Assembly (NCBI GenBank): GCA_043817155.1
Contig: JBDRHE010000087.1
Location: forward strand, 983 to 64,982
Direction of reading: 5' to 3'
Length of the DNA: 64,000 nt
Source: Candidatus Omnitrophota bacterium
GTDB taxonomy: Bacteria > Omnitrophota > Gorgyraeia > JABMRN01 > RBG-13-46-9
The notes under the pieces are model-generated. The model made no database searches. It worked only from the letters and a program-made list of their open reading frames with translations, and was not told where the DNA came from. Position numbers and translations under genes: made by a program. Below are positions 26,827 to 61,726 of the stretch, piece by piece. The first letter of the stretch is position 1. Every line of letters starts with the position of its first letter.

Positions 26827-26834
26827 TAAACACA

Positions 26835-27156: not shown

Positions 27157-27201
27157 AGGCTAAGATCTGTGCCAATCTGTGCATAGAAAAGGGAGGCAAT
27201 C

Positions 27202-29036: not shown

Positions 29037-29049
29037 AGAAGATAAAAAT

Positions 29050-33669: not shown

Positions 33670-33738
33670 GATTACGCGGATTTTGTGAACTATTTAGCGT
33701 TTTGATTACACGGATTATAGAAAGAGATTACACGGATG
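33670..33738 (+). promoter_or_regulatory. Three direct copies of GATTACRCGGAT(G) upstream of the first gene of the mbh operon
   Basis: Copies at 33670-33681, 33704-33715, 33726-33738 (last overlaps the ATG); same motif at 45024/45044, 49853/49872/49895/49956, 50744/50764. Confidence 0.5.
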
Positions 33739-34293
33739 AGCACGAGTGCAGAACAGATACATCACGGAGAGATCAATACCAAGCCTGGCAAAGGCAAGGA
33801 TAAGAGGCTGTTTATAGATCTCGATATTTGCGCTACCGGGAAATGCGAGAAGTGCGACATAGAATGCAGCTACTTCTATCATCCCGACAACATGGGCATT
33901 ATTTCGGTTGCGGAACTAGCTACATATGCGCTCGTCTGTCGTAGGTGTGAATCACCGCATTGTGTACTTTCTTGTCCGGTAGATGCTCTCGAGCAACAGA
34001 AAGATAAAGATAAGCTCTTAATGCGTCATAATATGCGGTGTGTAAGTTGCAAAACATGTTCACATGCCTGTCCATACGGTACGATCTATCCGGAGCTGGT
34101 ACCTCTTTTAATTCACAACTGTGATTTCTGTTTGGATAGGCGAAATCGGAAGAGTGAACCACTCTGCATAAAGACCTGTTCCCACGGGGCGCTTAGCTTG
34201 AGAGATGATAGTGAGAAACTCGGCGAGAAGATGTTCCGCGTTGGAGATAATATTGTAGTACATTCAACACATTGGCAGCAGGAGAAGGCGTGA
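33736..34293 (+). CDS. Polyferredoxin-type 4Fe-4S protein (first gene of the mbh operon)
   Basis: Multiple CxxCxxCxxxCP motifs. Confidence 0.7.
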   Translation: MSTSAEQIHHGEINTKPGKGKDKRLFIDLDICATGKCEKCDIECSYFYHPDNMGIISVAELATYALVCRRCESPHCVLSCPVDALEQQKDKDKLLMRHNMRCVSCKTCSHACPYGTIYPELVPLLIHNCDFCLDRRNRKSEPLCIKTCSHGALSLRDDSEKLGEKMFRVGDNIVVHSTHWQQEKA

Positions 34294-35213
34294 TTTACAT
34301 ATTCTACTTTATATTCTTCGGGTTCATATTAACGGCTTTCATGGGGCTTCTGGCCAGTTGGATAGACAGGAAGGTTACGGCGCGCGTTCAATACCGCGTA
34401 GGACCTCCGATTTTGCAGCCGCTTATCGATATCATAAAGCTTCTGGGGAAAGAGACACTGATCCCGGTAGGGGCTTCGAAGATTATGTTCTTAAGTATAC
34501 CTTTAATAGGCATGGCGAGCGTCATGCTGGTATCCACCATATTGTGGCTTAGCAATATAAATCAGGGCAATACCTTTGTAGGGGACCTTATTGTCGTGAT
34601 ATATCTTTTGACAATTCCGGCAATAAGTATTATCATGGGCGGGTTCGTATCCGGGAATCCATACGCCAGTTTGGGCGCATCCCGCGAGATGAAGCTTATC
34701 TTAGGTTATGAATTGCCATTTGTACTTGCGATATTCGTACCTATAATAAAGTCCGGATTTACAATCAAGCTTGGTGAGATCCTGGCGTTTCAGGCAGAAA
34801 ACGGCGTTATCATAGGAAGCTGGTCAGGAATCCTCGCGGTACTCGTCTCTATAATGTGTATGCAGGCAAAGCTCGGACTCGTTCCCTTTGACATAGCTGA
34901 AGCCGAAACCGAGATTACAAGCGGCCCGTTGATAGAATACTCCGGCGCCGGCCTTGCAGCCTATAAACTTATGAAGAACATGCTGCTCTTCGTGCTACCG
35001 TTCTTTTTGATGATCCTCTTTATGGGAGGCTTGCGGCTTGACGGTATACACCTTGTGTATGGTTTATTGAAATATGTCGGATTAGTTGCTATTGTAACGG
35101 TTATAAGGAACACGAATCCGCGCGTAAGGATCGATCAGGCGGTCAGATTCTTCTGGGGTCCGATGACTATTATTGCAATAATAGCGGTTGTATTAGCTTT
35201 TAGAGGCTTGTAA
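34272..35213 (+). CDS. mbhM: Membrane-bound hydrogenase subunit, NuoH/HycD/MbhM-like
   Basis: NuoH-family motif RVQYRVGPP...LQPLIDIIKLLGKE; polytopic; TTG/GTG start. Confidence 0.8.
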   Translation: MAAGEGVIYIFYFIFFGFILTAFMGLLASWIDRKVTARVQYRVGPPILQPLIDIIKLLGKETLIPVGASKIMFLSIPLIGMASVMLVSTILWLSNINQGNTFVGDLIVVIYLLTIPAISIIMGGFVSGNPYASLGASREMKLILGYELPFVLAIFVPIIKSGFTIKLGEILAFQAENGVIIGSWSGILAVLVSIMCMQAKLGLVPFDIAEAETEITSGPLIEYSGAGLAAYKLMKNMLLFVLPFFLMILFMGGLRLDGIHLVYGLLKYVGLVAIVTVIRNTNPRVRIDQAVRFFWGPMTIIAIIAVVLAFRGL

Positions 35214-35639
35214 ATGGGTATTAAATTAAACGCGTTATTAAAGTCACCCTGGGTTTTTCATCTATCCACGGGAAGCTGCAATAATTGCGACATAGAGATA
35301 TTGGACTGTCTTACCCCAAGGTTTGATATTGAGCGGTTCGGAATGCTCTTAGTCGGCAGCATTAAGCACGCGGACGTGCTGCTTGTGACCGGATCCGCTA
35401 ACAGGCAATCGATGGAGAGGGTTAAACGGGTTTACGAACAGATGCCGAAGCCCTGCCTTGTGGTTGCAATAGGCGAGTGCTGCATGTCGAGAGGAATGTT
35501 TATTCATAGTTATAATTGTCCGGTACCTTTCGATAAGGTAATACCGGTAGATGTTTATATACCCGGATGTCCGCCAAAACCGGAAGCTATAATTGCAGGG
35601 GTAGTCAAGCTTATAGAGAAGGTAAAAGGCAAGAAATAG
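35214..35639 (+). CDS. mbhJ: [NiFe] hydrogenase small subunit, NuoB/MbhJ-like
   Basis: CNNCDIE...GECCMSRG...GCPPKPE cluster motifs. Confidence 0.9.
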   Translation: MGIKLNALLKSPWVFHLSTGSCNNCDIEILDCLTPRFDIERFGMLLVGSIKHADVLLVTGSANRQSMERVKRVYEQMPKPCLVVAIGECCMSRGMFIHSYNCPVPFDKVIPVDVYIPGCPPKPEAIIAGVVKLIEKVKGKK

Positions 35640-35646
35640 GTTGCTG

Positions 35647-36120
35647 ATGAAAAGAGAAGAGATCCTGAAAGACTTAAAAGAGAGATTCAAAGGCGATATA
35701 ATAGATGTCTTTGACAAGACTATAAAGAGGGTATATATCGAAATCTACCCGAAATCCATAAGAAGGGTTGCCACCTATGTCTTTAAGGATCTTGGCGCCA
35801 GATTCAATATTGCCTCAGGCGTAGATGTACGCGACCATATGGAGATTCTCTATCATTTTACAATCGAAGAGATAAATCTCCTGATATCCTTGAGGGTGAA
35901 GCTCGATAAGTCAAAGCTGGAGATAGACTCTATTGCTCCTATTTTTGAAGGAGCCAATTGGATAGAGAGGGAGATTCACGAAATGTTCGGAATAGACTTT
36001 AAGGGGCACCCGGATATGAGGAGACTCCTCCTACCCGACGGGTGGCCGGAAGGCGTATATCCTTTGCGGCGAGATTACAAGGAATGGGATAAGGGCGCGA
36101 TAAGGGATAGAGGGGTATAA
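35647..36120 (+). CDS. mbhK: NuoC/MbhK-like subunit
   Basis: NuoC-family fold; operon position. Confidence 0.8.
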   Translation: MKREEILKDLKERFKGDIIDVFDKTIKRVYIEIYPKSIRRVATYVFKDLGARFNIASGVDVRDHMEILYHFTIEEINLLISLRVKLDKSKLEIDSIAPIFEGANWIEREIHEMFGIDFKGHPDMRRLLLPDGWPEGVYPLRRDYKEWDKGAIRDRGV

Positions 36121-36123
36121 TAA

Positions 36124-36252
36124 AATGTTTCTTAAGGTTACTTGAGGTTTCTTGAGGTTGCACTTCGTTTGCAAAATCCCGAAACTTTAAGAAACATTCC
36201 GAAACCTGAAGAAGCCTCAAGTAACGTTAAGCAACCTAAGGAAAGAAACATA
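36124..36252. repeat. Family-E imperfect inverted repeat (GTTTCTTAAGGTT / GAGGTTTCTTGAGGTTGCA), inside the operon upstream of mbhL
   Basis: Second copy at 43506-43612 upstream of mbhN. Confidence 0.7.
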
Positions 36253-36260
36253 TAAATAAT

Positions 36261-37442
36261 ATGGCGAAGACAATAGTTCCCATAGGTCCGTATCACCCGC
36301 TTCAGGAAGAACCGGAATTCTTTACGCTTACTGTTGAGGGTGAGAGGGTAGTAGATATAGATGTAAAGGTCGGATATAACCACAGAGGCATAGAGAAGCT
36401 GTCCGAGATGAAGACATTTGATCAGTCCACCTTTGTTATCGAGAGGATCTGCGGCATATGCTCTACGAGCCATCCCTTTGCCTATACAAGGGCGGTAGAG
36501 GACATTATTTCCGTTGAAGTACCGGAGAGAGCAAAGTTTATAAGGACTATCATCGCAGAAGGCGAAAGAATACATTCGCATCTTTTATGGGTCGGCCTTG
36601 CCGGCCATTTTCTGGGATACAACACCGTCTACATGTGGGCATGGAAGCTCCGGGAAGAGATACTGGACGTAATGGAGATACTATCCGGTAACCGCAATAA
36701 TTATGCTATGTTTAAACCCGGTGGCGTTAGAAGAGATATAAAGTCCGGGGATATACCGGGTGTCATAAAGAAGATAGATTCTATTATTCCGACATGCGTT
36801 ATGCTTAAGAAGGCCGTTATAGACGACCCTGTATTACACGCCCGGACCAAAGGTATAGGCATTCTAACCAAAGAGGAAGCTATAGATTATTGCGCCCTCG
36901 GTCCGACATCAAGGGCCTCCGGGGTAGAAAGGGATTTAAGGAAGGACTGTCCTTACGGAGCCTATGATAGAATGGAGTGGAATATGATCGTGACACAGAA
37001 CGGCGATGTATTCGATAAGGCGGTTGTGAGGATCCTGGAGACTTTTGAGTCTATCAAGATCATCAAGTATTGCCTCTTGAATCTGCCGGGTGGTGAAATC
37101 GATCTGAATATAAAGAGCATTCCTCCCGGAGAAGGCATAGGCCACATAGAGGCGCCGAGGGGCGAGACGTTCCATTATGTAAGAAGTGACGGGACAAACA
37201 GACCCGCGCGTCATAAGGTAAGGGCCCCGACATTTATGAATCTCCCGACATACAAAGCGACCGTTATAGGTGAGACAATATCGGACGCTACGATAATTCT
37301 GGCCGCCATAGATCCCTGCTATTGTTGCACAGAGAGAATAGCCGTGCGCAATACCGAGGGGAACAAGATATATAGCGGTGAGGAACTGGTGCGTCTTTCC
37401 CAAAAGAAGACCGAGGACTTGAGAAGGAAGAAGGTTTTTTAG
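36261..37442 (+). CDS. mbhL: Group-4 [NiFe] hydrogenase large subunit (NuoD/HycE/MbhL-like)
   Basis: N-terminal RICGICSTSH and C-terminal DPCYCCTER Ni-Fe ligand motifs both intact. Confidence 0.9.
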   Translation: MAKTIVPIGPYHPLQEEPEFFTLTVEGERVVDIDVKVGYNHRGIEKLSEMKTFDQSTFVIERICGICSTSHPFAYTRAVEDIISVEVPERAKFIRTIIAEGERIHSHLLWVGLAGHFLGYNTVYMWAWKLREEILDVMEILSGNRNNYAMFKPGGVRRDIKSGDIPGVIKKIDSIIPTCVMLKKAVIDDPVLHARTKGIGILTKEEAIDYCALGPTSRASGVERDLRKDCPYGAYDRMEWNMIVTQNGDVFDKAVVRILETFESIKIIKYCLLNLPGGEIDLNIKSIPPGEGIGHIEAPRGETFHYVRSDGTNRPARHKVRAPTFMNLPTYKATVIGETISDATIILAAIDPCYCCTERIAVRNTEGNKIYSGEELVRLSQKKTEDLRRKKVF

Positions 37443-37446
37443 ATTT

Positions 37447-39108
37447 ATGAATATAAGCGCGCAACTTTTCAGATTTGATAACCTGTCAATCTTTGTAGGT
37501 ATATTCATTGCCTTCTTCTCCGCGCTTACTATATTCTATTCTTTCGGATTCATGCGTAAGAGGGGCGGTCAGATCGGTTATTACCTATGTATAATTCTTA
37601 CTCTGGCAACATCGCTTGGGGCGGTCTTCTCTAACAATCTTATACTTTTTGTTGTCTTCTGGGGTTTTTTGGGATTTCTTTTATATCTTTTAATCGGGTA
37701 CGGCCAAAAAGAGAGAACGTCATATACTGCCAAGAAGGCGTTTATAATAATTGGCGGGACGGATGCTTTCATGTTGCTGGGTTTAGCATTTGTCTGGCAT
37801 ATTGCAGGATCATTCGATATGGACAAGCTGAGCATTGCTCTGGATAGCCGCCTTGCTACTTCGGCATATCTCTGCCTCGCTGTTGGCGCATTTGCCAAGG
37901 CGGGGGCAATGCCATTCCATACCTGGGTTCCGGATATGGCGGAAGACGCACCTACATCGGTTACAGCTTTCTTGCCGGCATCTTTGGACAAACTCCTAGG
38001 CATATATCTGCTTGTAAGAATTTCATTAGATATATTCGTGATGAATCAGACAATGAATACGTTTCTGCTTGCCATAGGCAGTATAACAATAGTCGCGGCT
38101 GTCATGATGGCCCTTGTGCAACATGATCTAAAGAGGCTCTTGGGGTATCATGCGGTAAGCCAGGTAGGGTACATGGTTCTTGGAATAGGCACCGGAAACC
38201 CGATAGGTATCGCAGGGGGGCTCTTCCACATGTTGAACAACGCGGTTTATAAGTCGTGCTTATTCATGTCAGGTGGGGCGATTGAAAAGAAGGCCGAGAC
38301 GACCGATCTCGGAAAGCTGGGTGGATTTGCCAGAATTATGCCCATCACCTTCGTAACCTTCTTAATTGCGTCGCTGGCGATATCAGGGGTACCGCCATTT
38401 AACGGTTTTACCTCTAAATGGATGATTTATCAGGGCATAATAGAGACAGCCAAAGGCGGAGGCCGACTCTGGGTTATATGGCTTATCGCGGCGATGTTCG
38501 GCAGCGCTCTAACGCTGGCCAGTTTTATGAAATTGATTCATACTATTTTTTTGGGACAACCGTCGAAAGAACAGAAGAGCAAAATAGAAAAAGGGGGGCG
38601 TCAGGAGACCGGGCCGACAATGTGGATACCACCCGTTATATTGGCCGCTCTGTGCGTCCTTTTTGGTGTATTTGCATTCAGAATACCGCTTAAGTTATTT
38701 ATATTACCCAGTCTGAGCATGAAGGTTCTTTTTACGGGGGTATGGAGCGCGCCGCTTGCGACAATTCTGATATTTATAGGAATAGGAGTCGGTTTTGTGG
38801 TCTACCTTTTTGGTACGGTCATTAAGACAAGATCGACCGAGCCATTTATTGGCGGCGAAATCTTGGGAGCGCATTCATCCATCCGGGTTTCCGGAACGGA
38901 ATTCTATACTTCAATACAGGATATAGGTATTTTAAGATTTATATACAATCTTGCGCAGAAGAAAGTATTTGACTTATATGAGGTTGGAACCAAGATCACA
39001 TTTGCCTTTAACAAACTTTTACGTTATCTTCATAATGGCGTGCTTTCAACGTACCTGGCATGGTGTCTTCTCGGAATGCTGATACTGTTCATTACGTTGC
39101 TTAAATAA
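37447..39108 (+). CDS. mrpA: Mrp antiporter subunit A-like (NuoL/MbhH family), N-terminal portion
   Basis: NuoL/MrpA proton-pumping antiporter fold, 553 aa. Confidence 0.8.
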   Translation: MNISAQLFRFDNLSIFVGIFIAFFSALTIFYSFGFMRKRGGQIGYYLCIILTLATSLGAVFSNNLILFVVFWGFLGFLLYLLIGYGQKERTSYTAKKAFIIIGGTDAFMLLGLAFVWHIAGSFDMDKLSIALDSRLATSAYLCLAVGAFAKAGAMPFHTWVPDMAEDAPTSVTAFLPASLDKLLGIYLLVRISLDIFVMNQTMNTFLLAIGSITIVAAVMMALVQHDLKRLLGYHAVSQVGYMVLGIGTGNPIGIAGGLFHMLNNAVYKSCLFMSGGAIEKKAETTDLGKLGGFARIMPITFVTFLIASLAISGVPPFNGFTSKWMIYQGIIETAKGGGRLWVIWLIAAMFGSALTLASFMKLIHTIFLGQPSKEQKSKIEKGGRQETGPTMWIPPVILAALCVLFGVFAFRIPLKLFILPSLSMKVLFTGVWSAPLATILIFIGIGVGFVVYLFGTVIKTRSTEPFIGGEILGAHSSIRVSGTEFYTSIQDIGILRFIYNLAQKKVFDLYEVGTKITFAFNKLLRYLHNGVLSTYLAWCLLGMLILFITLLK

Positions 39109-39109
39109 G

Positions 39110-39658
39110 ATGGTTGAACTATACATATTATTAATTCTGATGATCATGGGCGCGATAATCGCCGTTGAGGTTAAGGACATGCTCTCTTCGGTTGTAGCGG
39201 TAGGAGCGGTGGGCCTCATTCTCTCAATAGCCTTTTTGATACTAAAAGCACCCGATGTTGCTATTACCCAGCTCGTTGTTGAGATATTGGCCCTCATTAT
39301 CTTAATCAGGGCAACACTTAAGAAGGATCTGCCTTTTTCAACATCCGGAAGATGGGTACTAAATACCGTAATTACTTTTGCGTTCATAGGCGTGCTGCTA
39401 CTTGTCGCGCGCAAATGTTTCGCTGACTTGCCGGAATTTGGCTATCCTATAATGAGAGTGGCGGATACCTATATAAAGGACGGGCTCTTGAAGACAGGCG
39501 CAACCAACGTTGTGTCATCCGTTATACTGGATTTCAGGGCTTTCGATACACTTGGTGAGGCGACGGTCCTGTTTACAGCAGTTATAGGTGTATTGGCTAT
39601 TGTCAGGCGTACCGGAAGAAAGACGGAAGGTCAGAAGATAGAGGAAGAGGAAGAATAA
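39110..39658 (+). CDS. MrpA C-terminal / MnhB-domain protein (DUF4040-like)
   Basis: VILDFRAFDTLGE motif typical of the MrpA C-terminal/MnhB domain. Confidence 0.7.
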   Translation: MVELYILLILMIMGAIIAVEVKDMLSSVVAVGAVGLILSIAFLILKAPDVAITQLVVEILALIILIRATLKKDLPFSTSGRWVLNTVITFAFIGVLLLVARKCFADLPEFGYPIMRVADTYIKDGLLKTGATNVVSSVILDFRAFDTLGEATVLFTAVIGVLAIVRRTGRKTEGQKIEEEEE

Positions 39659-39930
39659 TGAGCCCCGTTAGACCTCTATATTTTACATATGTTTTAGAAA
39701 GTGAGAAGACAGGTGAATTCTATACTGGTGCTACATCCGATTTAAAGAAAAGAATAGTGAAACATAATAAAGGTTTGGTTGCTTCTACAAAATGTAGAGT
39801 TCCATTATATTTAGTATATTTTGAAGCATGCTTTAACAAAGAAGATGCTTTTCGCAGAGAAAAATATCTGAAATCTGGAATGGGTAAACGATATATCAAA
39901 AATCGATTAAGAGGAGATCTAACGGGGTGA
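39658..39930 (+). CDS. GIY-YIG nuclease-superfamily protein (YhbQ/UPF0213-like) inserted inside the mrp module
   Basis: LYFTYVLESEKTGEFYTGATSDLKKRIVKH matches the GIY-YIG core; markedly AT-rich; 1-nt and 4-nt overlaps with flanking genes. Confidence 0.7.
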   Translation: MSPVRPLYFTYVLESEKTGEFYTGATSDLKKRIVKHNKGLVASTKCRVPLYLVYFEACFNKEDAFRREKYLKSGMGKRYIKNRLRGDLTG

Positions 39931-40379
39931 GCAGAGAACACGAAAAGGGAATGTCTCTTATCGTTAAGACCGTTACGAGGCTTACAGTGGGTCTCATTAT
40001 ATTGTATGGTGTATACATTGTTCTTCACGGCCACGTTTCACCGGGTGGGGGTTTTGCAGGCGGCGTCATAATAGCCCTCTCCATTGTTCATCTTATGCTT
40101 GCTTATGGCAAAGACGTTGCTCTGGCGAAGCTTTCACGGGGCGCTGCACACTTCTTTGAGAGCACAGGTGCGCTCCTTTTCCTGGTTATAGCGATACTCG
40201 GATTCACCGGCGGGTACTTCTTTCTCAATTTTATATCTAAGGGAGAGCCCTTCCACCTCTTTAGCGCCGGCATAATTCCTCTTTGCAATATAGCCATAAG
40301 CATGAAGGTTGGAGCCGGGCTCTTTGCGATCTTCATTGCGCTCGTTCTCTTAGATCTGGAATCCGGGAGAAAGTCATGA
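39927..40379 (+). CDS. mrpB: Mrp antiporter subunit B
   Basis: HGHVSPGGGFAGGVI motif. Confidence 0.8.
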   Translation: MSREHEKGMSLIVKTVTRLTVGLIILYGVYIVLHGHVSPGGGFAGGVIIALSIVHLMLAYGKDVALAKLSRGAAHFFESTGALLFLVIAILGFTGGYFFLNFISKGEPFHLFSAGIIPLCNIAISMKVGAGLFAIFIALVLLDLESGRKS

Positions 40380-42216: not shown

Positions 42217-42217
42217 T

Positions 42218-42715: not shown

Positions 42716-42772
42716 AAAAATAGGTGAGATGAACCCCGTTAGAACTCTATCGGGGTGAAGAAAGTTGCGAAG

Positions 42773-43505: not shown

Positions 43506-43612
43506 GAGGTTTCTTAAGGTTTCGGAATGTTACTTAAGGTTTCTTGAGGTTGCAACAACTTAAATGCAACATAAAGAAACTTCCCGGAACCTAAAGAAAC
43601 ATTAAGAAACAT
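43506..43612. repeat. Family-E imperfect inverted repeat, second copy
   Basis: GAGGTTTCTTAAGGTTTCGGAATGTTACTTAAGGTTTCTTGAGGTTGCA ... GAAACATTAAGAAACAT. Confidence 0.7.
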
Positions 43613-43621
43613 AAAATATAT

Positions 43622-44233: not shown

Positions 44234-44323
44234 CCTTAAGCTTTAAGCCATAAGCCTTAAATGTATCTTCTCTAACGAGCGCAGATGATGAGACTTACGG
44301 CTTATAGCTTATAGCTTACAGCT
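44234..44323. repeat. Family-F ATAAGCT/AGCTTAT-rich inverted repeat directly after a stop codon
   Basis: AAGCCATAAGCC...GGCTTATAGCTTATAGCTT; copies at 46503-46577 and 52117-52212. Confidence 0.7.
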
Positions 44324-44325
44324 AT

Positions 44326-44817
44326 ATGAAGAAAGAATTAAAAGATATACTAAAAGGCAAGGTCGTTATCGTTGGCATCGGGAATGTTTTAAAAGGTGAT
44401 GATGGATTCGGCCCTGCGCTTATAGAGAGATTGAATACTACGGGTGTTGACGCGACCTGTATAGATGCCGGAACATCCCTGGAGAATTATTTTGGCAAGA
44501 TCGCGAAAGAGGATCCCGATGTTATCTTAATAGTTGATGCGGCTCATTTAGAGCTTAACCCGGGAGAGTGTGCCATCCTGGAATCGGAAGATATTCTGAG
44601 GAGCGGTCTCACCACGCATGATATATCGCCTAAGATGTTTATAGATTATTTGAAGGATCATACAAGAGCATCCGTATATATGCTGGGTGTTCAACCGGAG
44701 AGTATTTCACTGGGTGATGAGATGTCCGCAACCCTTGGTAGAAGTCTAGGTAATATCGCGAAAGATATGGAGGAGATACTGAATGCACGAGACACATCTG
44801 ATAGAACCCATAATTAA
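44326..44817 (+). CDS. hycI: Hydrogenase maturation endopeptidase (HycI/HyaD family)
   Basis: VVIVGIGNVLKGDDGFGP motif. Confidence 0.85.
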   Translation: MKKELKDILKGKVVIVGIGNVLKGDDGFGPALIERLNTTGVDATCIDAGTSLENYFGKIAKEDPDVILIVDAAHLELNPGECAILESEDILRSGLTTHDISPKMFIDYLKDHTRASVYMLGVQPESISLGDEMSATLGRSLGNIAKDMEEILNARDTSDRTHN

Positions 44818-45025
44818 AGGAATTTCCGAACACGCGAGGAAAGAGGGCGCCAAGAGCGTATCCAGGGTGAGGCTTAAGATAGGGGAATTTACGGGTATCA
44901 AAGAAGAGTCATTCCGGGAGACTTTTAGAGTATTGGCTAAAGGTACAGTATTGGAAGGAACTAAACTCGAACTTTCGTATTTTTTAGCTTCACGGATCGA
45001 GGTAGTGTCTTTCGATATAGAGTGA
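44783..45025 (+). CDS. hypA: HypA-like Ni metallochaperone, N-terminal domain only (no zinc finger)
   Basis: MHE Ni-binding N-terminus and core alignable to E. coli HypA; lacks the C-terminal CxxC...CxxC. Confidence 0.65.
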   Translation: MHETHLIEPIIKGISEHARKEGAKSVSRVRLKIGEFTGIKEESFRETFRVLAKGTVLEGTKLELSYFLASRIEVVSFDIE

Positions 45026-45041
45026 TTACACAGATTAGGGA

Positions 45042-46139
45042 GTGATTACACAGATGAGCAAGGGTTCGAACATACTGGCTCTCGGGGCCGATATGAAGAG
45101 CAGGTATCTGGTCGCAAGCGGCAGCAAGCTCGAGTTCGGTCCGGAGATAGGGGATCTCGGCGAGGCCAGGAACTTCGCATTCTTCAAGAGGAAAGTACAA
45201 CAGGTCGTCAAAAGGACAAAGCCGGCTATTATAACGCATGACCTGCATCCCGGTTATTTTTCCACCCGATTGGCCAGGAGAATAGGCGCCGAACATCCTG
45301 CTGCCAGTCTACTGCCGGTCCAACACCACTATGCTCACATAGCAAGCGTGATGGCCGAATTTGGATTAAAAGGACCCGCTATAGGGGTTGCGCTTGACGG
45401 AACAGGTTTGGGTACTGACGGAAATATATGGGGTGGCGAATTTATTGTGGTGAGAAACCGGAACTTCAACCGTGTGGGGCATTTCAAATATATCAGGATG
45501 CCGGGCGGGGAGAAGGTTATAAGCGAGATCTGGAGAATGGTTATTAGCATACTGGGCAGAGTCGGGTGTCCGTTCCTAAAAGATGTTGAGGAGATAGCGA
45601 AAGAGATGCTCATATCCATGATGGAGAAGGGTATCAATTCGCCGTTAACCTCAAGTGTCGGCAGGATCTTCGACGCTGCCGCGTCGCTTACAGGCGTCTG
45701 TCGGGAAGCCGCATATGAAGCGGAAGGACCGATAAAGCTCGAGAAACTATGTGATTACAAGATCAAGGAAAGTTATAATTTCACGATATCAAAAAATAAG
45801 GGCACATTTACAATCGATGTAAGGCCAATTTTTTTTGAATTGATTAAAGATCTCAAGAAAAGAACGAAGAGATCGGTTATTGCTACGAAATTCCACAATT
45901 CAATGGTTATGGCGGTCTTTAAAATGGTAAAGAAGATAACGGAAGAAACCGGGATAAAGGATGTTCTGCTCTCGGGAGGGGTGTTCCAGAACAGTTTTTT
46001 GAGAAGGAGGCTCATGGAGAAGTTGTCCAAAGCCGGGTTCAAGGTTTTTATAAATGAAAAGACGCCGGTAAATGACCATAATATAGCACTTGGGCAGTAT
46101 TATATCGCGAAGAATTATCCACAAACGAACAGTAAGTAG
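45042..46139 (+). CDS. hypF: HypF-like carbamoyltransferase, Kae1-like C-terminal domain only
   Basis: PVQHHYAHIASV and VALDGTGLGTDGNIWGGEF match the HypF C-terminal domain; no acylphosphatase, Zn-finger or YrdC domains; begins MITQM at a GATTACACAGATG motif. Confidence 0.75.
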   Translation: MITQMSKGSNILALGADMKSRYLVASGSKLEFGPEIGDLGEARNFAFFKRKVQQVVKRTKPAIITHDLHPGYFSTRLARRIGAEHPAASLLPVQHHYAHIASVMAEFGLKGPAIGVALDGTGLGTDGNIWGGEFIVVRNRNFNRVGHFKYIRMPGGEKVISEIWRMVISILGRVGCPFLKDVEEIAKEMLISMMEKGINSPLTSSVGRIFDAAASLTGVCREAAYEAEGPIKLEKLCDYKIKESYNFTISKNKGTFTIDVRPIFFELIKDLKKRTKRSVIATKFHNSMVMAVFKMVKKITEETGIKDVLLSGGVFQNSFLRRRLMEKLSKAGFKVFINEKTPVNDHNIALGQYYIAKNYPQTNSK

Positions 46140-46200
46140 CGAGTAGCAAGTAGAGAGTAGAGAGAGCTTCTCGCTACTTGCTACTCTCTACTCGCCACTT
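46131..46200. repeat. Family-D AGTAG/CTACT hairpin element, second copy, overlapping the hypF stop
   Basis: Approximately 95% identical to 15160-15232. Confidence 0.7.
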
Positions 46201-46234
46201 AAAAAAATTTGTGTCTAATAGAACTAGGTAAAGT

Positions 46235-46513
46235 ATGTGTTTAGCCACACCCGCGAAGATAAAGAAAATAGAGGAGACCGTCGATAGCGGGAAGACCGCC
46301 ATTGTTGATTTCGGTGGCGTTCAAAGAAGGATCTCTCTTGGTATCCTGAATAATGCTAAAATAGGCGACTACGTTCTTGTGCACGCCGGTTTTGCGATAG
46401 GCAAGGTTAGTAAGCTTGAAGCAGAGAATACAAAAAGGGCGTTAGAGGAGCTGCGGAGAACATACGAAGGGGCGCAAATGTATGTTGAAGATATAGATAT
46501 CCATAAGCTATAA
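46235..46513 (+). CDS. hypC: Hydrogenase maturation factor HypC
   Basis: MCLATP N-terminus (Cys2). Confidence 0.9.
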   Translation: MCLATPAKIKKIEETVDSGKTAIVDFGGVQRRISLGILNNAKIGDYVLVHAGFAIGKVSKLEAENTKRALEELRRTYEGAQMYVEDIDIHKL

Positions 46514-46577
46514 GCCGTAAGCTATAAGCTTAGACCGTTTTGAGCTTATAGCTTAAAACTTAAGGCTTAAAGCTTTG
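46503..46577. repeat. Family-F inverted repeat overlapping the hypC stop
   Basis: ATAAGCTATAAGCCGTAAGCTATAAGCTT...GAGCTTATAGCTT. Confidence 0.7.
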
Positions 46578-46597
46578 GTCAATTTAAGGAAATTGTT

Positions 46598-47608
46598 GTG
46601 AAGCAGATTAAGCTCATGGAAGTATGCGGAACGCATACAATGGCGATTGCGAGAGCAGGAATAAAGAAGGTCTTACCCAAAGGCATTAAGCTTGTATCGG
46701 GCCCGGGATGCCCTGTGTGCGTAACGGACCAGACGAATATCGATTATGCTATAGAGGTATCGCGTATTAAGGACGTTATCATGGCTACGTTCGGCGATAT
46801 GTTGCGTGTTCCCGGTTCTCAAGGTAGCCTGGATGATATAAGAAGAGAGGGTTACGACGTTCGAGTAGTGTATTCCTGTATCGATGCCCTTAAGATCGCG
46901 AAGGTTAACCCGGGCCATAGAGTTGTATTTATGGGCGTTGGTTTTGAAACTACCGCTCCTACAGTAGCAGCCAGCGTTTTGGAGGCGGAGCGAAAGGGGA
47001 TAAGCAACTTTTTTGTCTTATCGAATTTTAAACTTGTATTCCCGGCGCTCGAGATTATCTCAAGCTCGAAGAGAGTCCAGATCGACGGTTTTATATGCCC
47101 GGGGCATGTTAGCGTTATTACTGGCAGCAAACCTTACGAAAAGATCGCAAATAAATATAAGAGACCGTGTGTCATTATGGGTTTTGAACCCTCAGAGATA
47201 TTGAGTGGCATAAGCAGACTGGTCAAGCAGGTCAGGAACGGGGAGCATAAGGTCGAGATCGATTATAAGAGAGCCGTAAAAAGGTCCGGCAATGTTACTG
47301 CGCGAAATGTCCTCAATTCAGTTTTTGAAGCGGATGACGCAGAATGGAGAGGTATAGGCCAGATCAAGAAGAGTGGTTTAAGTATAAGAAGAGAATACAA
47401 GAAGTTCGACGGAAAGAGAGAATTTAATCTCATCGTCCCCCGGGCGCCGAAACCCCGTGGGTGCATATGTGGCGACGTATTACAAGGTATATATTCACCC
47501 CAGGACTGCAAATTATTTAAGAGGTTTTGTACGCCCCAGCGGCCGGTTGGGCCTTGCATGGTCTCTTCCGAGGGGACATGCGCGGCATACTTTAAGTACG
47601 GGGGGTAA
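46598..47608 (+). CDS. hypD: Hydrogenase maturation factor HypD
   Basis: CGTHT, GPGCPVC and C-terminal CPVC motifs. Confidence 0.9.
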   Translation: MKQIKLMEVCGTHTMAIARAGIKKVLPKGIKLVSGPGCPVCVTDQTNIDYAIEVSRIKDVIMATFGDMLRVPGSQGSLDDIRREGYDVRVVYSCIDALKIAKVNPGHRVVFMGVGFETTAPTVAASVLEAERKGISNFFVLSNFKLVFPALEIISSSKRVQIDGFICPGHVSVITGSKPYEKIANKYKRPCVIMGFEPSEILSGISRLVKQVRNGEHKVEIDYKRAVKRSGNVTARNVLNSVFEADDAEWRGIGQIKKSGLSIRREYKKFDGKREFNLIVPRAPKPRGCICGDVLQGIYSPQDCKLFKRFCTPQRPVGPCMVSSEGTCAAYFKYGG

Positions 47609-47896
47609 CACGGAACGCATGACACGTGAATTTAATAGTAAACTTACGATGGACGAAAGACGATGGACGGCTTTTGACTCGTCTTTGCGAGGTGCCGCAA
47701 TAGACTGAGCGCACCGAAGCAATCTCGCTAAGTCTGTCTTTGCGAAGTGCCTTAATATACTAAGCGCACTGAAGCAATCAAACTAGCTCGATGAGATTGC
47801 TTCGGCACGCTCGAATATTCCGGTGCCTCGCAAAGACGAGGAAAGCTTGAGATTGCTTCGGCACGCTCGAATATTCCGGTGCCTCGCAAAGACGAG
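47609..47896. repeat. Family-A modular repeat with the R-arm tandemly duplicated
   Basis: Forward units 47679-47726 and 47733-47779; R-arm copies 47791-47839 and 47848-47896 are 100% identical; a degenerate third start supplies the track's ATG at 47902. Confidence 0.85.
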
Positions 47897-47934
47897 AAAA
47901 GATGAGATTGATTTGGCACAAGAAAGTGAAGGGA

Positions 47935-48930
47935 ATGGTGAAGAGCGAAATAGTAACACTGGCGCACGGCAATGGCGGCAGGTTAATGCATGAACTTATT
48001 GAGAGGCTGCGCCGCATGTTTTCCAATAAGATCCTGGACGAGATGGCGGATGCCGCGCGAATTCATGTGAATAGAAAGGATATAGCATTCAGTACGGACT
48101 CCTATGTTGTCAAGCCCCTATTCTTCCCGGGAGGGGATATAGGGAAGCTCGCGGTCTGCGGAACAGTTAATGATATATCAATGAAGGGCGCAAGACCGCT
48201 CTTTATATCGCTCGCCTTAATTATCGAGGAAGGATTCGAAATGCATACCCTCGACAGGATCGCGCAATCTATAAAGGTTGCCTCAAGAAAGGCCGGAGTC
48301 AGAATTGTAACAGGCGACATAAAGGTTGTTGAAAATGGATCGGCCGACGGACTTTTTATAAACACATCAGGGATAGGTGTGCTGATAGATCCCGATAGAC
48401 ATATAGGCGCAAAGGCAAGAGTGGATGATGTTATAATCATAAATGGCGGCATAGCGGAACATGGCATGGCCATTCTGAATGCAAGGGAGAGACTTGGATT
48501 TGTTGCCGGCATTAAGAGTGACTGTAAAAATCTTAATGCAGATATTGCAAAAATTATTAAGACCTCAAAGAATGTCAGTGTTTTGCGCGATCCTACAAGG
48601 GGTGGGCTTGCTACAGCATTGAACGAGATAGCTTCTGCATCTAATCTGGGAATAGAGATCGATGAAGGGAGCGTACCGGTAAGAAAGAATGTAAGAAAGA
48701 TGTGTGACATATTGGGGTTCGATCCGATGTATATTGCCAATGAAGGCAAATTCTTATGTTTCGTAAACCGCTCGGATGCTTCGAAAGTCCGACGGGTTAT
48801 GGGCAAGGATGCCTCTATAATCGGAGAGGTCGTGTCACGTCACAAAAGTGAGGTCCATTTGAGGATAGGGATCGGTTCAAGTCGCATTCTACCTATGCTT
48901 GAAAGCGATCAGCTCCCGCGCATCTGCTAA
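47935..48930 (+). CDS. hypE: Hydrogenase maturation factor HypE
   Basis: TLAHGNGG N-terminus, AIR-synthase-like fold, C-terminal PRIC. Confidence 0.9.
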   Translation: MVKSEIVTLAHGNGGRLMHELIERLRRMFSNKILDEMADAARIHVNRKDIAFSTDSYVVKPLFFPGGDIGKLAVCGTVNDISMKGARPLFISLALIIEEGFEMHTLDRIAQSIKVASRKAGVRIVTGDIKVVENGSADGLFINTSGIGVLIDPDRHIGAKARVDDVIIINGGIAEHGMAILNARERLGFVAGIKSDCKNLNADIAKIIKTSKNVSVLRDPTRGGLATALNEIASASNLGIEIDEGSVPVRKNVRKMCDILGFDPMYIANEGKFLCFVNRSDASKVRRVMGKDASIIGEVVSRHKSEVHLRIGIGSSRILPMLESDQLPRIC

Positions 48931-48938
48931 GAGAGGGA

Positions 48939-49835
48939 ATGCTAGTAAAATACATGAAAGAGAGTCTGCAAGTTTTATATATTACGGCAGCATCGCTTGG
49001 ATTTGTCCATACAGTCTTTGGACCGGACCACTACCTACCTTTTATCGTAATGGGCCGGGCCAGAGAATGGTCACTCGCGAAGACATTGTGGATAACATTT
49101 CTCTGCGGCATCGGACATATATTAGGCTCTGTTCTTCTTGGCATGATGGGTATAGCCTTTGGCATAGGGGTAATGCGGCTAGAAGCTCTGGAGGAGATTC
49201 GGGGAAATCTTGCAGCGTGGGTCTTGATTGGATTTGGGCTCGCCTATTTTGTGTGGGGGCTTCGAAGGGCAATAAGATATAGATCGCATCGTCACAAACA
49301 TCTTCATCCGCCTCCGCAGGAAACCCCAGCTTTGGCCGGGGAAGAATGTGGCAGTTCTGCTTCCGCCTTCGCTGAATGGCATTCGCGTTCAGCTTCGGCG
49401 GACAAGTCGGCGAGATGTCGCCTCGAAGATGGCGGGCGGATGCCGCGCCGAAGCTCGAAGAGCGAAGGCGGGCTCCACAGTGGTGATGACCGCCATGCCC
49501 ACGGCCATGTACATACAGGTGGGCACTCACACGTCCACGACAAGAATGGAAAAAACATAACCCCGTGGATACTTTTTACAATCTTCGTCCTTGGGCCGTG
49601 CGAACCGCTCATACCGCTTCTTATGTACCCGGCATCGAAAAGCAGCATGACGGGACTCGTCTGGGTAACGGCCATATTCGGTGTAGTGACGGTCCTGACA
49701 ATGATTTCGATCGTGCTTTTAATGTCTTTAGGGGTTAACCTCATTCCGCTCGGAAAACTGGAACGCTATACCCACGCTCTAGCCGGTGCCACGATACTCC
49801 TTTCCGGCCTCGCTATACAATTCCTTGGTTTATAA
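48939..49835 (+). CDS. NicO/RcnA-family nickel/cobalt transporter with His-rich loop
   Basis: TM motifs VHTVFGPDH and GPCEPLIP (compare RcnA LHGLEPGH / LIPCP); central HAHGHVHTGGHSHVH loop; follows the hyp genes. Confidence 0.65.
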   Translation: MLVKYMKESLQVLYITAASLGFVHTVFGPDHYLPFIVMGRAREWSLAKTLWITFLCGIGHILGSVLLGMMGIAFGIGVMRLEALEEIRGNLAAWVLIGFGLAYFVWGLRRAIRYRSHRHKHLHPPPQETPALAGEECGSSASAFAEWHSRSASADKSARCRLEDGGRMPRRSSKSEGGLHSGDDRHAHGHVHTGGHSHVHDKNGKNITPWILFTIFVLGPCEPLIPLLMYPASKSSMTGLVWVTAIFGVVTVLTMISIVLLMSLGVNLIPLGKLERYTHALAGATILLSGLAIQFLGL

Positions 49836-49852
49836 TAACTTCTATTGACAGA

Positions 49853-49997
49853 GATTACACAGATTAAGGAGGATTACACAGATGGTTGCCTCGTATCTGT
49901 GTAATCAAAACGTTGCATACTTCACAGAATCAAGTTTTATCAATCTGAATAAAAAATCTGTGTAATCATTGAGAAAATATGTTATTTAGTATATAAT
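49853..49997 (+). promoter_or_regulatory. GATTACACAGAT motif cluster (two direct, two inverted) plus TTGAGA-N17-TATAAT promoter for nadE
   Basis: Motifs at 49853-64, 49872-83, 49895-906 (RC), 49956-67 (RC); -35 at 49969-74 and -10 at 49992-97. Confidence 0.5.
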
Positions 49998-50022
49998 CAG
50001 AACCTATAAGGAAGGGGAGAAG

Positions 50023-50745
50023 ATGATGGATCTCAGCGCAAAGATAGCAGATTGGATTAAGAAGCAGGTCCGTGATGCCGGGAAAAAAGGAATCATTGTG
50101 GGACTCAGCGGCGGCATAGATTCAAGTGTTGTGGCAGCGCTTTCGAAGCGCGCCGTGGGGGATAATGTGCGTGGTCTTATACTTCCCTGCAAGAGTAATT
50201 CGGAAGATGTTGAGTTAGCTTATAAGGTATCGAAGAGATTTAACATTAAAACGGAAGAGGTTGTGCTGGATAAGCTATTCGACCAGATGGTTAACGTATA
50301 TCCGGCAGCAAGGGATCTGGCGAAATCGAACCTGAAACCTCGCCTACGCATGACAACCCTCTATTACTTCGCGAATGCACTCGATTATCTTGTGGCCGGA
50401 ACCGGTAACAGGACCGAGCTGGTTATCGGTTACTTTACGAAATACGGGGATGGGGGTGTAGATATTCTACCTATAGGAGGACTGCTTAAATCGGGAGTAA
50501 GGAAATTGGCCAAAAAACTCGATGTGCCAGGAGAGATCATCGCAAGGCCGCCTTCTGCGGGTCTCTGGCACGGTCAGACCGATGAAGGCGAGATAGGTAT
50601 AACCTATGATGAGCTTGACAGGACGATCAATGCCATAAATAATGGTAAGACCAGCGATATAGACAAGGAGATCTTGGCAAAGGTCAACGGCATGATTAAG
50701 AATTCAGAACACAAGAGATGCGCCGTACCAATATTCGAAGAATGA
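50023..50745 (+). CDS. nadE: NH3-dependent NAD+ synthetase
   Basis: GLSGGIDSSVVAAL PP-loop. Confidence 0.9.
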   Translation: MMDLSAKIADWIKKQVRDAGKKGIIVGLSGGIDSSVVAALSKRAVGDNVRGLILPCKSNSEDVELAYKVSKRFNIKTEEVVLDKLFDQMVNVYPAARDLAKSNLKPRLRMTTLYYFANALDYLVAGTGNRTELVIGYFTKYGDGGVDILPIGGLLKSGVRKLAKKLDVPGEIIARPPSAGLWHGQTDEGEIGITYDELDRTINAINNGKTSDIDKEILAKVNGMIKNSEHKRCAVPIFEE

Positions 50746-50761
50746 CTACACGGATTGGGGA

Positions 50762-52132
50762 ATGATTACACAGATGAAAAGAGATTCGAGTAGATGTATC
50801 CGCGATATCGAGGAGATGTTCGAGCTCTCTCCAGGCGAAATTCGGCGGATAGTAAAGGATTTCCATTCGGAGATGCGAAGAGGTCTTTCGGGACGGGGAA
50901 GCTCGCTCAAGATGATACCCTCTTACGCCGGAAGACCAAGCGGTACCGAGAAGGGCAGGTTTCTTGCTCTTGATCTCGGTGGAACGAATTTCAGGCTTCA
51001 GTTGATAAGGTTGGAAGGTAATAGACGGATACGGTCTTGCATGTCAGAGAGTTATGTTTTGAAGAAGAGACTTTTGAGAGGCACAGGCAAGAAGTTTTTC
51101 GATTTCATAGCCGGCCGCGTAGAAAAATTCATTGATAAAAATGGAAAGGCCGGAGATGAAGACTGTAAAATAGGATTTACCTTCTCATTCCCTGTTAAGC
51201 AGACCAGGGTAGACAACGGTATCCTGATCAGGTGGACAAAAGGGTTCCAGATAAGTGGTGTAGAGGGTAAGGACGTGGTCAAATTGCTTAATGAATCTCT
51301 GAAAGGTAGAGGATTGGGATATGTAAGTGTCGTCGCTCTTGCAAATGATACGGTAAGTACGGTCGCTGCTAAAAGCTATGAAGATAAGAACTGCGACATC
51401 GGCGTAATCTTGGGGACCGGTACGAACGCCTGTTATTGCGAAAAGCGCTCCAATGTATTAAAGGTAAGAAAAGAGGCGATCTTGCCCAGAGGCGTCTTTA
51501 TAAATATGGAGTGGGGCAACTTTAGTAAAATAAGATCTACGGCATATGACAGGGAGTTGGACGCATCATCGGTCAATCCCGGAGAACAGTTACTCGAAAA
51601 GATGGTGTCAGGCAGATATCTTGGAGAGATCGCAAGATTAGTTTTAAGAGATTTAAAAAGAAGGAGAGCGATTTTCATAAATAGACCCATCTCCATATTG
51701 GACATGCCGTATCGATTCAAATCAGAATATATGTCGATGGCCGAGAGCGATAATTCTAAAATGATGACGCGAACAGATAGATTGCTAAAGAAGCTGGGCA
51801 TAAATAAATCATCTGCTGCCGACAGGAGGCTTCTCAAGAGAGTGTGCATGGCGATCTCTAAGAGAGCTGCATGTATCAGCGCAGCGGCCATATTTTCGGT
51901 GGTTACCAAAATAGATAGCCGCGTGTCCAGGCGACATACGATAGCTGTAGATGGTTCTGTTTATGAAAAGTATTGCGGATTCCCGAAGAAGATGAGAGAT
52001 GCGCTTAAAGAGAATTTCAGACTGATAGATCAAAACAGAGGCGTTTCCAGAGTAAGGCTGAGCCTCACTAAGAATGCGTCCGGCAAGGGCGCCGCTGTTA
52101 TAGCGGCGATGAGTAGAGCTTTAGCTTCCTAG
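50762..52132 (+). CDS. Hexokinase-family sugar kinase (eukaryote-type)
   Basis: LDLGGTNFRL signature and two-domain actin-fold kinase; begins MITQM at a GATTACACAGATG motif. Confidence 0.75.
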   Translation: MITQMKRDSSRCIRDIEEMFELSPGEIRRIVKDFHSEMRRGLSGRGSSLKMIPSYAGRPSGTEKGRFLALDLGGTNFRLQLIRLEGNRRIRSCMSESYVLKKRLLRGTGKKFFDFIAGRVEKFIDKNGKAGDEDCKIGFTFSFPVKQTRVDNGILIRWTKGFQISGVEGKDVVKLLNESLKGRGLGYVSVVALANDTVSTVAAKSYEDKNCDIGVILGTGTNACYCEKRSNVLKVRKEAILPRGVFINMEWGNFSKIRSTAYDRELDASSVNPGEQLLEKMVSGRYLGEIARLVLRDLKRRRAIFINRPISILDMPYRFKSEYMSMAESDNSKMMTRTDRLLKKLGINKSSAADRRLLKRVCMAISKRAACISAAAIFSVVTKIDSRVSRRHTIAVDGSVYEKYCGFPKKMRDALKENFRLIDQNRGVSRVRLSLTKNASGKGAAVIAAMSRALAS

Positions 52133-52212: not shown

Positions 52213-52224
52213 GGAGTTACGACA

Positions 52225-61704: not shown

Positions 61705-61726
61705 GGCCGCATCAAAGTTAGCGGAG

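Follow-up and report, generated by a model that had tools for sequence, protein, structure and literature searches.

The question raised by the window analyzed here, a whole stretch of 64,000 nt from contig JBDRHE010000087.1 of a Candidatus Omnitrophota bacterium, is why one 12-nt motif, GATTACACAGAT, should recur at four gene boundaries: in front of an mbh-like hydrogenase operon, the maturation gene hypF, the promoter of the NAD synthase gene nadE, and a hexokinase gene. A first-pass annotation of this DNA took the motif for a shared operator coordinating hydrogenase, its maturation, NAD synthesis, and glycolysis or, alternatively, for a conserved translation-initiation context. The evidence assembled below points to another answer, which we regard as probable and some way from secure: GATTAC(A/G)C(N)GAT forms the core that is conserved in a family of small, non-coding, dispersed intergenic repeats resembling MITEs (miniature inverted-repeat transposable elements) and short tandemly repeated repetitive (STRR) sequences. 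On this view a common repeat element, and not membership of one regulon, would account for the motif at all four loci.

Recurrence within the window, which is the scope of the scan for this genome, is far beyond chance. The degenerate form GATTACRCRGAT has 10 exact matches against 0.02 expected, and none of 100 shuffles reached 10. Those on the plus strand start at 33670, 33704, 33726, 45024, 45044, 49853, 49872, and 50764; those on the minus strand start at 49895 and 49956. The exact-match scan bears out the placement first proposed (four loci, each at a gene boundary), and the orientations and the copies per locus (3, 2, 4, and 2) also stand. The count of eleven consensus copies needs one amendment, as ten are exact and the eleventh, at 50744 (GACTACACGGAT), deviates from consensus at position 3. 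Allowing up to two mismatches gives 18 matches against 5.1 expected; 11 of the 18 lie at the four loci and the remainder are at chance level. Copies are spaced 19-61 nt apart, and direct inspection of the 12-mer finds it non-palindromic and without an internal dyad. All genes in the window are on the plus strand, and all four loci fall inside the 8.7% of it that is non-coding or gene-boundary sequence. By Pfam assignment the gene order runs from an FAD/NAD oxidoreductase through the Fer4 protein and NADH-dehydrogenase-like subunits to HycI, HypA, a C-terminal-type HypF, HypD, a DsbD_2-like protein, NAD synthase, and hexokinase.

Half-elements, in which every copy is forward (plus strand), make up three of the four loci. 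Upstream of the mbh Fer4 gene, copy 1 (GATTACGCGGAT, 33670..33681) is separated by a long spacer (33682..33703) from copy 2 (GATTACACGGAT, 33704..33715), which is followed by copy 3 (GATTACACGGAT, 33726..33737), so that successive copies start 34 and 22 nt apart. In copy 3 the final two bases and the G that follows make up ATG 33736-33738, the probable start of a 185-aa 4Fe-4S dicluster (Fer4) protein, the first gene of the mbh-like operon. The other two half-elements share one layout, in which copy 2 begins 20 nt downstream of the start of copy 1. Between hypA and hypF, copy 1 (45024..45035) opens with the GA of the hypA stop TGA (45023-45025), the 8-nt spacer TAGGGAGT (45036..45043) carries a Shine-Dalgarno-like GGGAG (45038-45042), and copy 2 (45044..45055) ends in ATG 45054-45056, the probable start of a 361-aa C-terminal-type HypF. 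At the nadE/hexokinase junction, the first two bases of the degenerate copy 1 (GACTACACGGAT, 50744..50755) are the GA of the nadE TGA (50743-50745), the 8-nt spacer TGGGGAAT (50756..50763) carries a Shine-Dalgarno-like GGGGA, and copy 2 (50764..50775) ends in ATG 50774-50776, the probable start of the 452-aa hexokinase.

The fourth locus, between the DsbD_2-like gene and nadE, is a full element. Its outer and inner forward copies (49853..49864 and 49872..49883, plus strand) start 19 nt apart and flank the spacer TAAGGAG (49865..49871), which with the next G reads as a Shine-Dalgarno-like AAGGAGG; after an 11-nt gap come inner and outer reverse copies (49895..49906 and 49956..49967, minus strand), 61 nt apart. 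Folding predicts a two-tier hairpin (-36.5 kcal/mol, z = -4.2) in which the inner copies form a helix of 12-13 bp around a loop of 9-11 nt, the outer copies pair with each other, and the TAAGGAG spacer is an internal loop; predicted folding of the half-elements in the window is at chance level (z near 0). The inner forward copy ends in ATG 49882, which opens a 27-codon open reading frame (ORF; 49882-49965) that stops at a TAA within the last reverse copy. A near-consensus, sigma-70-like promoter, TTGAGA-17-TATAAT (49969..49997, plus strand), begins 2 nt past that copy and lies 26 nt 5' of the nadE ATG (50023). In the hypF, nadE-upstream, and hexokinase arrays alike, the Shine-Dalgarno-like sequence is placed between copies and not within one; inspection of the motif by eye only, for complementarity to conserved 16S rRNA segments or for promoter-like hexamers, yielded nothing convincing.

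A first indication of common descent comes from the spacers. Positions 33679-33715, at the mbh locus, match part of the nadE element (49895-49931, read as its reverse complement) at 84% over 37 nt, and the inter-copy spacer is included in the match. These loci are therefore better read as copies of one longer unit than as operator sites that evolved independently.

The wider distribution points the same way. In a scan of one genome per GTDB species (596 Gb) for two 12-mers 5-12 nt apart, paired arrays were found in at least 120 genome blocks, against about 0.5 expected by our own calculation under uniform base composition. Among the matches listed, about 20 phylum-level groups are represented (by record title), and flanking genes are unrelated. 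The groups include Omnitrophota, Deltaproteobacteria/Thermodesulfobacteriota, Elusimicrobia/Endomicrobiales, Planctomycetota, Bacteroidota, Acidobacteriota, Gemmatimonadota, Chloroflexota, Clostridia, Nitrospirota, Verrucomicrobiota, Ignavibacteriota, Poribacteria, WOR-3/Stahlbacteria, and others, with a Thiomargarita metagenome-assembled genome (MAG; L025) and four candidate-phyla-radiation MAGs. The matches listed also include six Pedobacter isolate genomes (Bacteroidota) and Mb-scale contigs, which make it unlikely that the cross-phylum matches are mis-binned contigs of a single lineage. No recurrent neighbor gene family emerged from all ORFs of 145 loci; only generic families cluster there (signaling, ABC, glycosyltransferase, short-chain dehydrogenase/reductase, and phage structural genes). 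The first-pass annotation had itself set one outcome against its regulatory proposal, that the motif be part of a dispersed repeat, and that is what was found.

Two forms recur among these genomes: the full element as at nadE, and head-to-tail arrays of the 9-mer GATTACRCR, 1 1/3 units of which make up the 12-mer (28 such clusters in other genomes). In mixed-orientation clusters forward copies precede reverse copies in 47 of 47 cases. Within an arm the copies are most often 22 nt apart (48 arms), then 21 (30), 20 (17), 19 (14), and 23 (11); a phasing of 21-22 nt is about two turns of B-DNA. Spacers are unconstrained elsewhere except for an A/T-rich TTnnAAA tendency, the base 5' of the motif is mostly T, and the outer copy is often abutted by a hairpin whose stem varies and whose loop is TGAAAAAC. 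Full elements measure 77-115 nt, occur in several copies per MAG, have terminal inverted repeats and no coding capacity, and fold with z = -4.2 to -7.5. They mostly occupy an entire intergenic gap, lying between co-directional genes in 35 of 40 cases (background 73%, p=0.03) and in divergent regions in 2 of 40 (background 11%).

Larger arrangements accompany these forms. A 145-nt composite, which runs from hairpin B (GAGnTTGTTGAAAAACTCAACAATCTC) through two pairs of 12-mers with a loop between them to hairpin A (AAGGCTGTTGATGnCTTTTTCAACAGCCT), is kept as a unit in four species-level groundwater MAGs (L003, L017, L059 twice, L081 twice, and L087). Their labels are Deltaproteobacteria, Nitrospirae, and Nanoarchaeia, the last of which looks like mis-binning. 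On a Gemmatimonadales contig (L022, 4150-6950) lies a tandem array of ~270-bp units, each with forward 9-mer repeats (GATTACGCA) and reverse copies around ~110 nt of conserved internal sequence.

Conservation of the paired arms offers a way to ask what is being maintained. Across 32 elements, complementarity at the two variable positions was 86, against 89.2 +/- 2.5 on random re-pairing, and none of 37 informative pairs was compensatory. This absence of arm covariation indicates that the copies each stay near the same sequence independently and that upkeep of a helix is not what is conserved. Taken with the two-turn phasing and the cross-phylum identity, it argues for recognition by a sequence-specific partner. 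Identity as a structured cis-regulatory RNA was rejected on the same pair count and on the lack of a match at Rfam gathering scores: a gathering-score search of the window and 15 loci returned tRNAs only, with no match at the motif loci. At E<=1 over 33-51 kb there was again no match at the four loci, and other hairpins drew sub-threshold microRNA-like hits.

Sequence-specific recognition is also what a DNA operator would require, with one regulator bound to direct repeats two helical turns apart and controlling mbh, hyp, nadE, and hexokinase. Several features suit such an arrangement: the 12-mer is conserved and the spacers are not, phasing of 19-22 bp would set sites on one face of the helix, arms without covariation are expected of protein sites, and the full element lies against the -35 box of the nadE promoter, the only promoter-like site adjoining any of the four loci. 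Placement speaks against it, as three of the four loci are co-directional junctions of 28 or 90 nt in which the motif lies over the Shine-Dalgarno sequence and start instead of a promoter, the hexokinase junction itself has no promoter-like site, and full elements are depleted in divergent promoter regions. The unrelated neighbors across at least 120 genome blocks and the mbh/nadE spacer homology, which reads as duplication of an element, weigh on the same side. A comparison with Rex, CRP, FNR, and Fur consensus palindromes, at 2-5 mismatches, gave no match within the four loci.

Relatives provide a direct test of an operator. The genome is a divergent member of Omnitrophota, its hexokinase being no more than 57% identical to any database homolog; a metagenome scan with that protein found one locus, at 46% identity, without the motif. 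(The enzyme, 50774-52132, is of eukaryote type, with Hexokinase_1 and Hexokinase_2 domains; Omnitrophota proteins match it best, at 50-57% identity, followed by vertebrate hexokinases at 34-41%.) In L147, from a complete 1.43-Mb genome, the order is MnhG-Fer4-HycI-HypA-HypF(C-terminal type)-HypC-HypD-HypE, followed farther on by NadE, a GATase_7 gene, and hexokinase-Zip-Thi4; the nadE-hexokinase part is common to L148 and L150/L151. The regions of L147, L148, and L150/L151 with the same hyp, nadE, and hexokinase genes contain no motif at up to two mismatches. Where the window has its array between hypA and hypF, L147 has a plain 17-nt spacer with GAAGGAG, and junctions along this run of genes, which are 30 to -29 nt long in L147, measure 28-293 nt in the window. 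With the motif lacking at orthologous loci of three relatives, control of the four loci by a common DNA-binding regulator appears improbable, and the loci should not be annotated as a regulon.

The same comparison bears on how the junctions arose. Both nadE junctions (49836-50022 and 50746-50773) are synteny breakpoints relative to L147, L148, and L150: in the relatives nadE is preceded by AlaDh and ATP-grasp genes and separated from hexokinase by a GATase_7 gene, and in L150 by a histidine kinase gene as well, and none of these is in the window. Deletions between dispersed copies would be compatible with this pattern. A deletion scar at hypA/hypF was considered and rejected, since L147 has the same 81-aa HypA (short form at 1403-1648) and 350-aa HypF (C-terminal form at 1666-2718). 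HypA in the window (44783-45025) is ~80 aa and covers Pfam profile positions 1-65 of 112; HypF (45054-46139) has the C-terminal Kae1-like domains only, at 350-361 aa across the window and L147. As both short proteins occur in another Omnitrophota genome, they are lineage features and not truncations.

What, then, do the copies do at the start codons? The proposal that the motif overlaps the hypF and hexokinase starts is upheld, and the further claim that both proteins begin M-I-T-Q-M is not: that N terminus arises only from choosing the longest ORF (GTG 45042 and ATG 50762), and these codons sit 0-1 nt after the Shine-Dalgarno-like GGGAG and GGGGA. HypF of the syntenic relative L147 begins VKSSLIVLAAGA, which aligns with MSKGSNILALGA read from ATG 45054 in the window, and the Hexokinase_1 domain begins at residue 9 when numbering starts from ATG 50774. 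The upstream codons' position against the Shine-Dalgarno-like sequence and the L147 N terminus both argue for the later ATGs; judged from such sequence features, the true starts are most likely the motif-terminal ATGs 33736, 45054, and 50774, and the annotated starts of hypF and hexokinase belong there. The distance from the Shine-Dalgarno-like sequence to the ATG would then be 11-12 nt at hypF and hexokinase, and it is 9 nt at the 27-codon ORF, at the long end of a distribution whose commonest values in the window are 5-9 nt.

Use of the motif as a start is a peculiarity of this genome. In 510 copies elsewhere the base after the 12-mer is T in 78% and G in 7%, and almost none of the resulting GATG cases opens a gene, the exception being on the viral contig L126. 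Each of the four array-terminal copies in the window reads GATG, and long genes open at three of these copies; all three half-elements are in sense orientation, each ending in a start codon. The conserved translation-initiation context offered as an alternative in the first-pass annotation therefore fits the window, in which each forward array has a Shine-Dalgarno-like spacer and a terminal ATG, and fails in the relatives, where it is not conserved; it is a lineage-specific co-option only. The window is a clear example of a repeat donating a Shine-Dalgarno sequence and a start codon to housekeeping genes.

These start-codon arrays raise the possibility of control at the level of mRNA. A CsrA-, S1-, or Csp-like protein could bind copies around the Shine-Dalgarno sequence and AUG, or copies could pair with the two AUCUGUGUAAUC segments upstream of nadE, so that initiation on Fer4/mbh, hypF, and hexokinase would be repressed or activated jointly. 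We consider this unlikely. The geometry does suit it, in that at three genes and a short ORF the copies flank the Shine-Dalgarno sequence and include the start codon, and every half-element in the window is sense-oriented; G-U pairs would let AUCUGUGUAAUC accommodate the A/G variants. For CsrA, dual-site binding has its optimum at a separation of ~18 nt, near the 19-22 nt seen here, and the consensus obtained by systematic evolution of ligands by exponential enrichment (SELEX) is RUACARGGAUGU, which the mbh copies UUACACGGAUG match at 9 of 12 positions. CsrA/RsmA sites, too, are short and lie in twos or more around the Shine-Dalgarno sequence and start codon, at intervals of ~18-20 nt. The GGA that CsrA requires is nevertheless present in 4 of the 11 window copies, the other 7 having AGA, and on that ground identity as a CsrA site was rejected; the Shine-Dalgarno sequence, over which one CsrA site would be expected, here lies between copies. 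The motif moreover occurs in phyla without CsrA; Bacteroidota, to our knowledge, lack it. None of the small ORFs tested was csrA-like.

The other genomes bear on this possibility too. Half-elements there are 16 sense and 19 antisense, with no strand bias relative to genes, and in most of these genomes it is the reverse, not the forward, copies that adjoin the downstream Shine-Dalgarno sequence. Together these observations make a general RNA-level cis-regulatory role unlikely, and the motif is missing at the same genes in relatives. Pairing in trans with the nadE reverse copies was rejected: the half-elements are unstructured, but the only antisense copies in the window lie in the nadE element, which is predicted to pair with itself.

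Could the arrays instead be a neutral by-product of slippage-prone short tandem repeats and template-switch palindromes, with no partner or function and with start-codon use an accident of short gaps? Several observations lend themselves to this: the derivation of the 12-mer from 1 1/3 units of GATTACRCR, the head-to-tail 9-mer arrays of many genomes, and the several other tandem and hairpin repeat families in the window. Copy number also varies at an orthologous Pedobacter intergenic region, with 2 copies in one species (L061 2450-2660) against at least 5 in another (L062 3480-3830). (Simple repeats in that region differ as well, (GGTTTAG)2 against (GTTTAGC)6, and its reverse copies adjoin a Bacteroidetes-type TAnnTTTG promoter box.) According to the summary of Mrazek 2007 in PMC4679880, long simple-sequence repeats with 5-11-nt units are patchily abundant. 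Slippage, however, leaves unexplained the recurrence of one unit in about 20 phylum-level groups, the invariable forward-then-reverse order, the non-contiguous 21-22-nt phasing, and the conserved 145-nt composite; nor does it account for a T-to-G change making ATG in four of four terminal copies in the window when G follows 7% of copies elsewhere. We consider a purely neutral origin improbable.

A dispersed intergenic repeat would accommodate these observations as follows. The canonical element would be two forward copies in ~21-22-nt phase, a short loop, and two reverse copies, ~80-90 nt in all, which terminal hairpins would lengthen to ~145 nt in some lineages. Elements would be copied as units into short gaps between co-directional genes, and their propagation or maintenance would most likely proceed through a sequence-specific partner that reads the 12-mer; this could be an element-propagating enzyme, a host protein, or an RNA. 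Once transcribed, the full form is predicted to fold into a stable two-tier hairpin. This genome holds one such element, at the end of the hyp cluster and against the nadE promoter. Three sense half-elements, two of them overlapping the upstream TGA, would have been co-opted as translation-initiation regions, probably by inserting into or replacing very short intercistronic spacers and then becoming fixed; in the last copy the following T would have changed to G, giving the ATG of the downstream gene. Any effect on translation or mRNA stability, like the binding partner, is putative.

Several points weigh against this account. No target-site duplication emerged in 14 strict full elements, where matches at offsets 0-3 and k = 2-9 were at chance level. 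No transposase, REP-associated tyrosine transposase (RAYT; REP, repetitive extragenic palindromic), or candidate partner appeared in ~1.1 Mb of flanks, in which the largest ORF clusters were inspected; at L124 the forward and reverse arms are 4.7 kb apart with only small phage-like ORFs between. BLAST against PLSDB plasmids and INPHARED phages gave chance-level matches only, and in IMG/VR the array is in only 25 contigs; with no plasmid or phage hits beyond these, mobility is inferred from distribution. At 95% identity, clusters of bacterial MITEs are reported to stay within single phyla (PMC11602168), and identity of the 12-mer across phyla is therefore left unexplained by MITE biology alone. 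For this organism, the copy numbers given are those within the 64-kb window. Lastly, uniform sense orientation and start codons in all three half-elements amount to more order than a neutral repeat requires and leave room for a true translational role. On a further reading, the 12-mer would be the recognition site of a factor, protein or RNA, itself spread across or universal in about 20 phylum-level groups and recruited in this Omnitrophota lineage to gate initiation of hydrogenase, maturation, and hexokinase genes. We put this forward as a speculative extension of low probability; if true, GATTAC arrays would be a cosmopolitan cis-element family with co-occurring TGTCATTCCCGCG...GCGGGAATCCAG and GTCATTGCGAR...CGAAGCAATC modules, and a regulon would have been created through repeat dispersal.

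GATTAC is one of at least six repeat families in the window, where almost every mbh/hyp junction is occupied by one of them: GTTTCTTAAG hairpins, TAAGCYW hairpins (two junctions), AGTAGCR hairpins, and GATGGACGA together with GAGATTGCTTCGG...CTCGCAAAGACG modules, in addition to GATTAC itself. The hairpin arms are tandem 7-11-nt units (GTTTCTTAAG, TAAGCYW, AGTAGCR, GATGGACGA, and others). Hairpin-filled junctions are at 43506-43621, 44234-44325, 46140-46234, 46514-46597, 47609-47901, 36121-36260, 52133-52224, and 15117-15279; in L147 the genes flanking those of the mbh/hyp region abut or overlap. Such intercistronic repeats should be masked before motif discovery.

Other modules recur as well. 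A hairpin module, TGTCATYCCCGCG-n-GCGGGRATCCAG, is found at 8029-8106, 12939-13025, 26995-27081, 27764-27860, and 27961-27996; it is also in Ignavibacteriota and viral contigs (L049, L123/L146), directly beside GATTAC-type copies, and looks like a second cross-phylum module. Another, GAGATTGCTTCGGCAC...GGTGCCTCGCAAAGACGA, occurs in both orientations and is often doubled (6-59, 23630-23810, 26930-27160, 28866-29040, 30082-30134, and 47672-47905); the related module GTCATTGCGAR...CGAAGCAATC is at 8-11 fetched loci in several phyla. Loci for one or the other are L002, L091, L092, L011, L023, L086, L094, L056, and L095. In the rubrerythrin/desulfoferrodoxin intergenic mosaic, a possible degenerate forward GATTAC pair, ACACAGATGAACGCAGAT (26829..26847, plus strand), lies at the left edge, and a possible degenerate reverse pair, ATCTGTGCCAATCTGTG (27177..27193, minus strand), just 5' of the desulfoferrodoxin Shine-Dalgarno sequence (gene 27202); both are weak, the former seen by local alignment only. 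Elsewhere, a 638-nt gene-free stretch (12896-13533) has a near-consensus promoter, TTGACA-17-TATCAT, followed by GC-rich hairpins, with no Rfam match at gathering score. At 53947-64000, three consecutive ORFs (1549 aa, 1019 aa, and >770 aa) have internal 38-300-nt coiled-coil-type repeats; their sole Pfam match, DUF4200, is sub-threshold.

A literature-library search covering the 12-mer with its variants and the modules found beside it yielded nothing but unrelated primer sequences, and phased 12-mer arrays across about 20 phylum-level groups, with their co-occurring modules, appear to be undescribed. MITEs and REPs are normally genus-specific; a cross-phylum pattern points to widely shared binding or copying machinery, for which the 12-mer is a concrete bait. 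The object is a new family of a known, poorly understood kind, the dispersed short intergenic repeats, with unusual phylogenetic breadth, and comparison with established families helps to place it.

REP sequences, bacterial interspersed mosaic elements (BIMEs), and REPINs resemble the GATTAC family in being extragenic and of high copy number, in forming inverted doublets and mosaics with short modules between co-directional genes, and in lacking target-site duplication. The REP unit, however, is a species-specific palindrome of 20-40 nt; the 12-mer is non-palindromic, and REP identity was rejected on that account. No Y1-transposase-like or RAYT family was seen near elements in the largest ORF clusters, to which inspection was confined. 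Mycobacterial interspersed repetitive units (MIRUs) are intercistronic, with ends overlapping the upstream stop and the downstream start, just as at hypA/hypF and nadE/hexokinase; in contrast, they are 46-101-bp head-to-tail units with small ORFs, found in mycobacteria only.

STRRs, heptamers that Mazel reportedly described in 1990 from heterocystous cyanobacteria, share with the long simple-sequence repeats an intergenic location, tandem short units that often form inverted-array hairpins, and an abundance that depends strongly on lineage, and the two describe the phenomenon at large. The AGTAGCR, TAAGCYW, and GTTTCTTAAG families of the window are STRR-like in appearance, as are the 9-mer GATTACGCA arrays of other phyla. 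STRRs differ in being restricted to a genus or phylum, whereas the GATTAC 12-mer crosses phyla and is usually non-contiguous.

Direct repeats of the heptamer TAACTGA in marine Beggiatoaceae, Cyanobacteria, and Bacteroidetes (MacGregor 2015, PMC4679880) are the closest precedent, by analogy. They too are short units in sets of 2-6, intergenic, and mostly a few nt before starts over the ribosome-binding region, with no functional pattern downstream and a patchy cross-phylum spread without an evident mechanism of transfer. S1, Csp, or CsrA was proposed as their binder (PMC4679880), the same idea of an RNA-binding protein weighed above for the start-codon arrays. The GATTAC unit differs as a 12-mer (in 9-nt register) whose copies are 19-22 nt apart and not head-to-tail; its arrays are mostly forward-forward-reverse-reverse palindromes, span many more phyla, and in the window have the start codon inside the motif.

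For the full element, the nearest likeness is to MITEs such as the Correia elements (CREE) of Neisseria and the enterobacterial ERIC/IRU sequences: ~80-150 nt, non-coding, bounded by terminal inverted repeats, and intergenic within operons. The GATTAC element departs from them in that neither target-site duplication nor a cognate insertion sequence was found, and in building each inverted repeat from two phased 12-mers, an arrangement like that of inverted repeat/direct repeat (IR/DR) elements. CREE and ERIC sequences are co-transcribed hairpins able to carry promoters or processing sites, and on this analogy the full element probably works as a Correia/ERIC-type MITE does.

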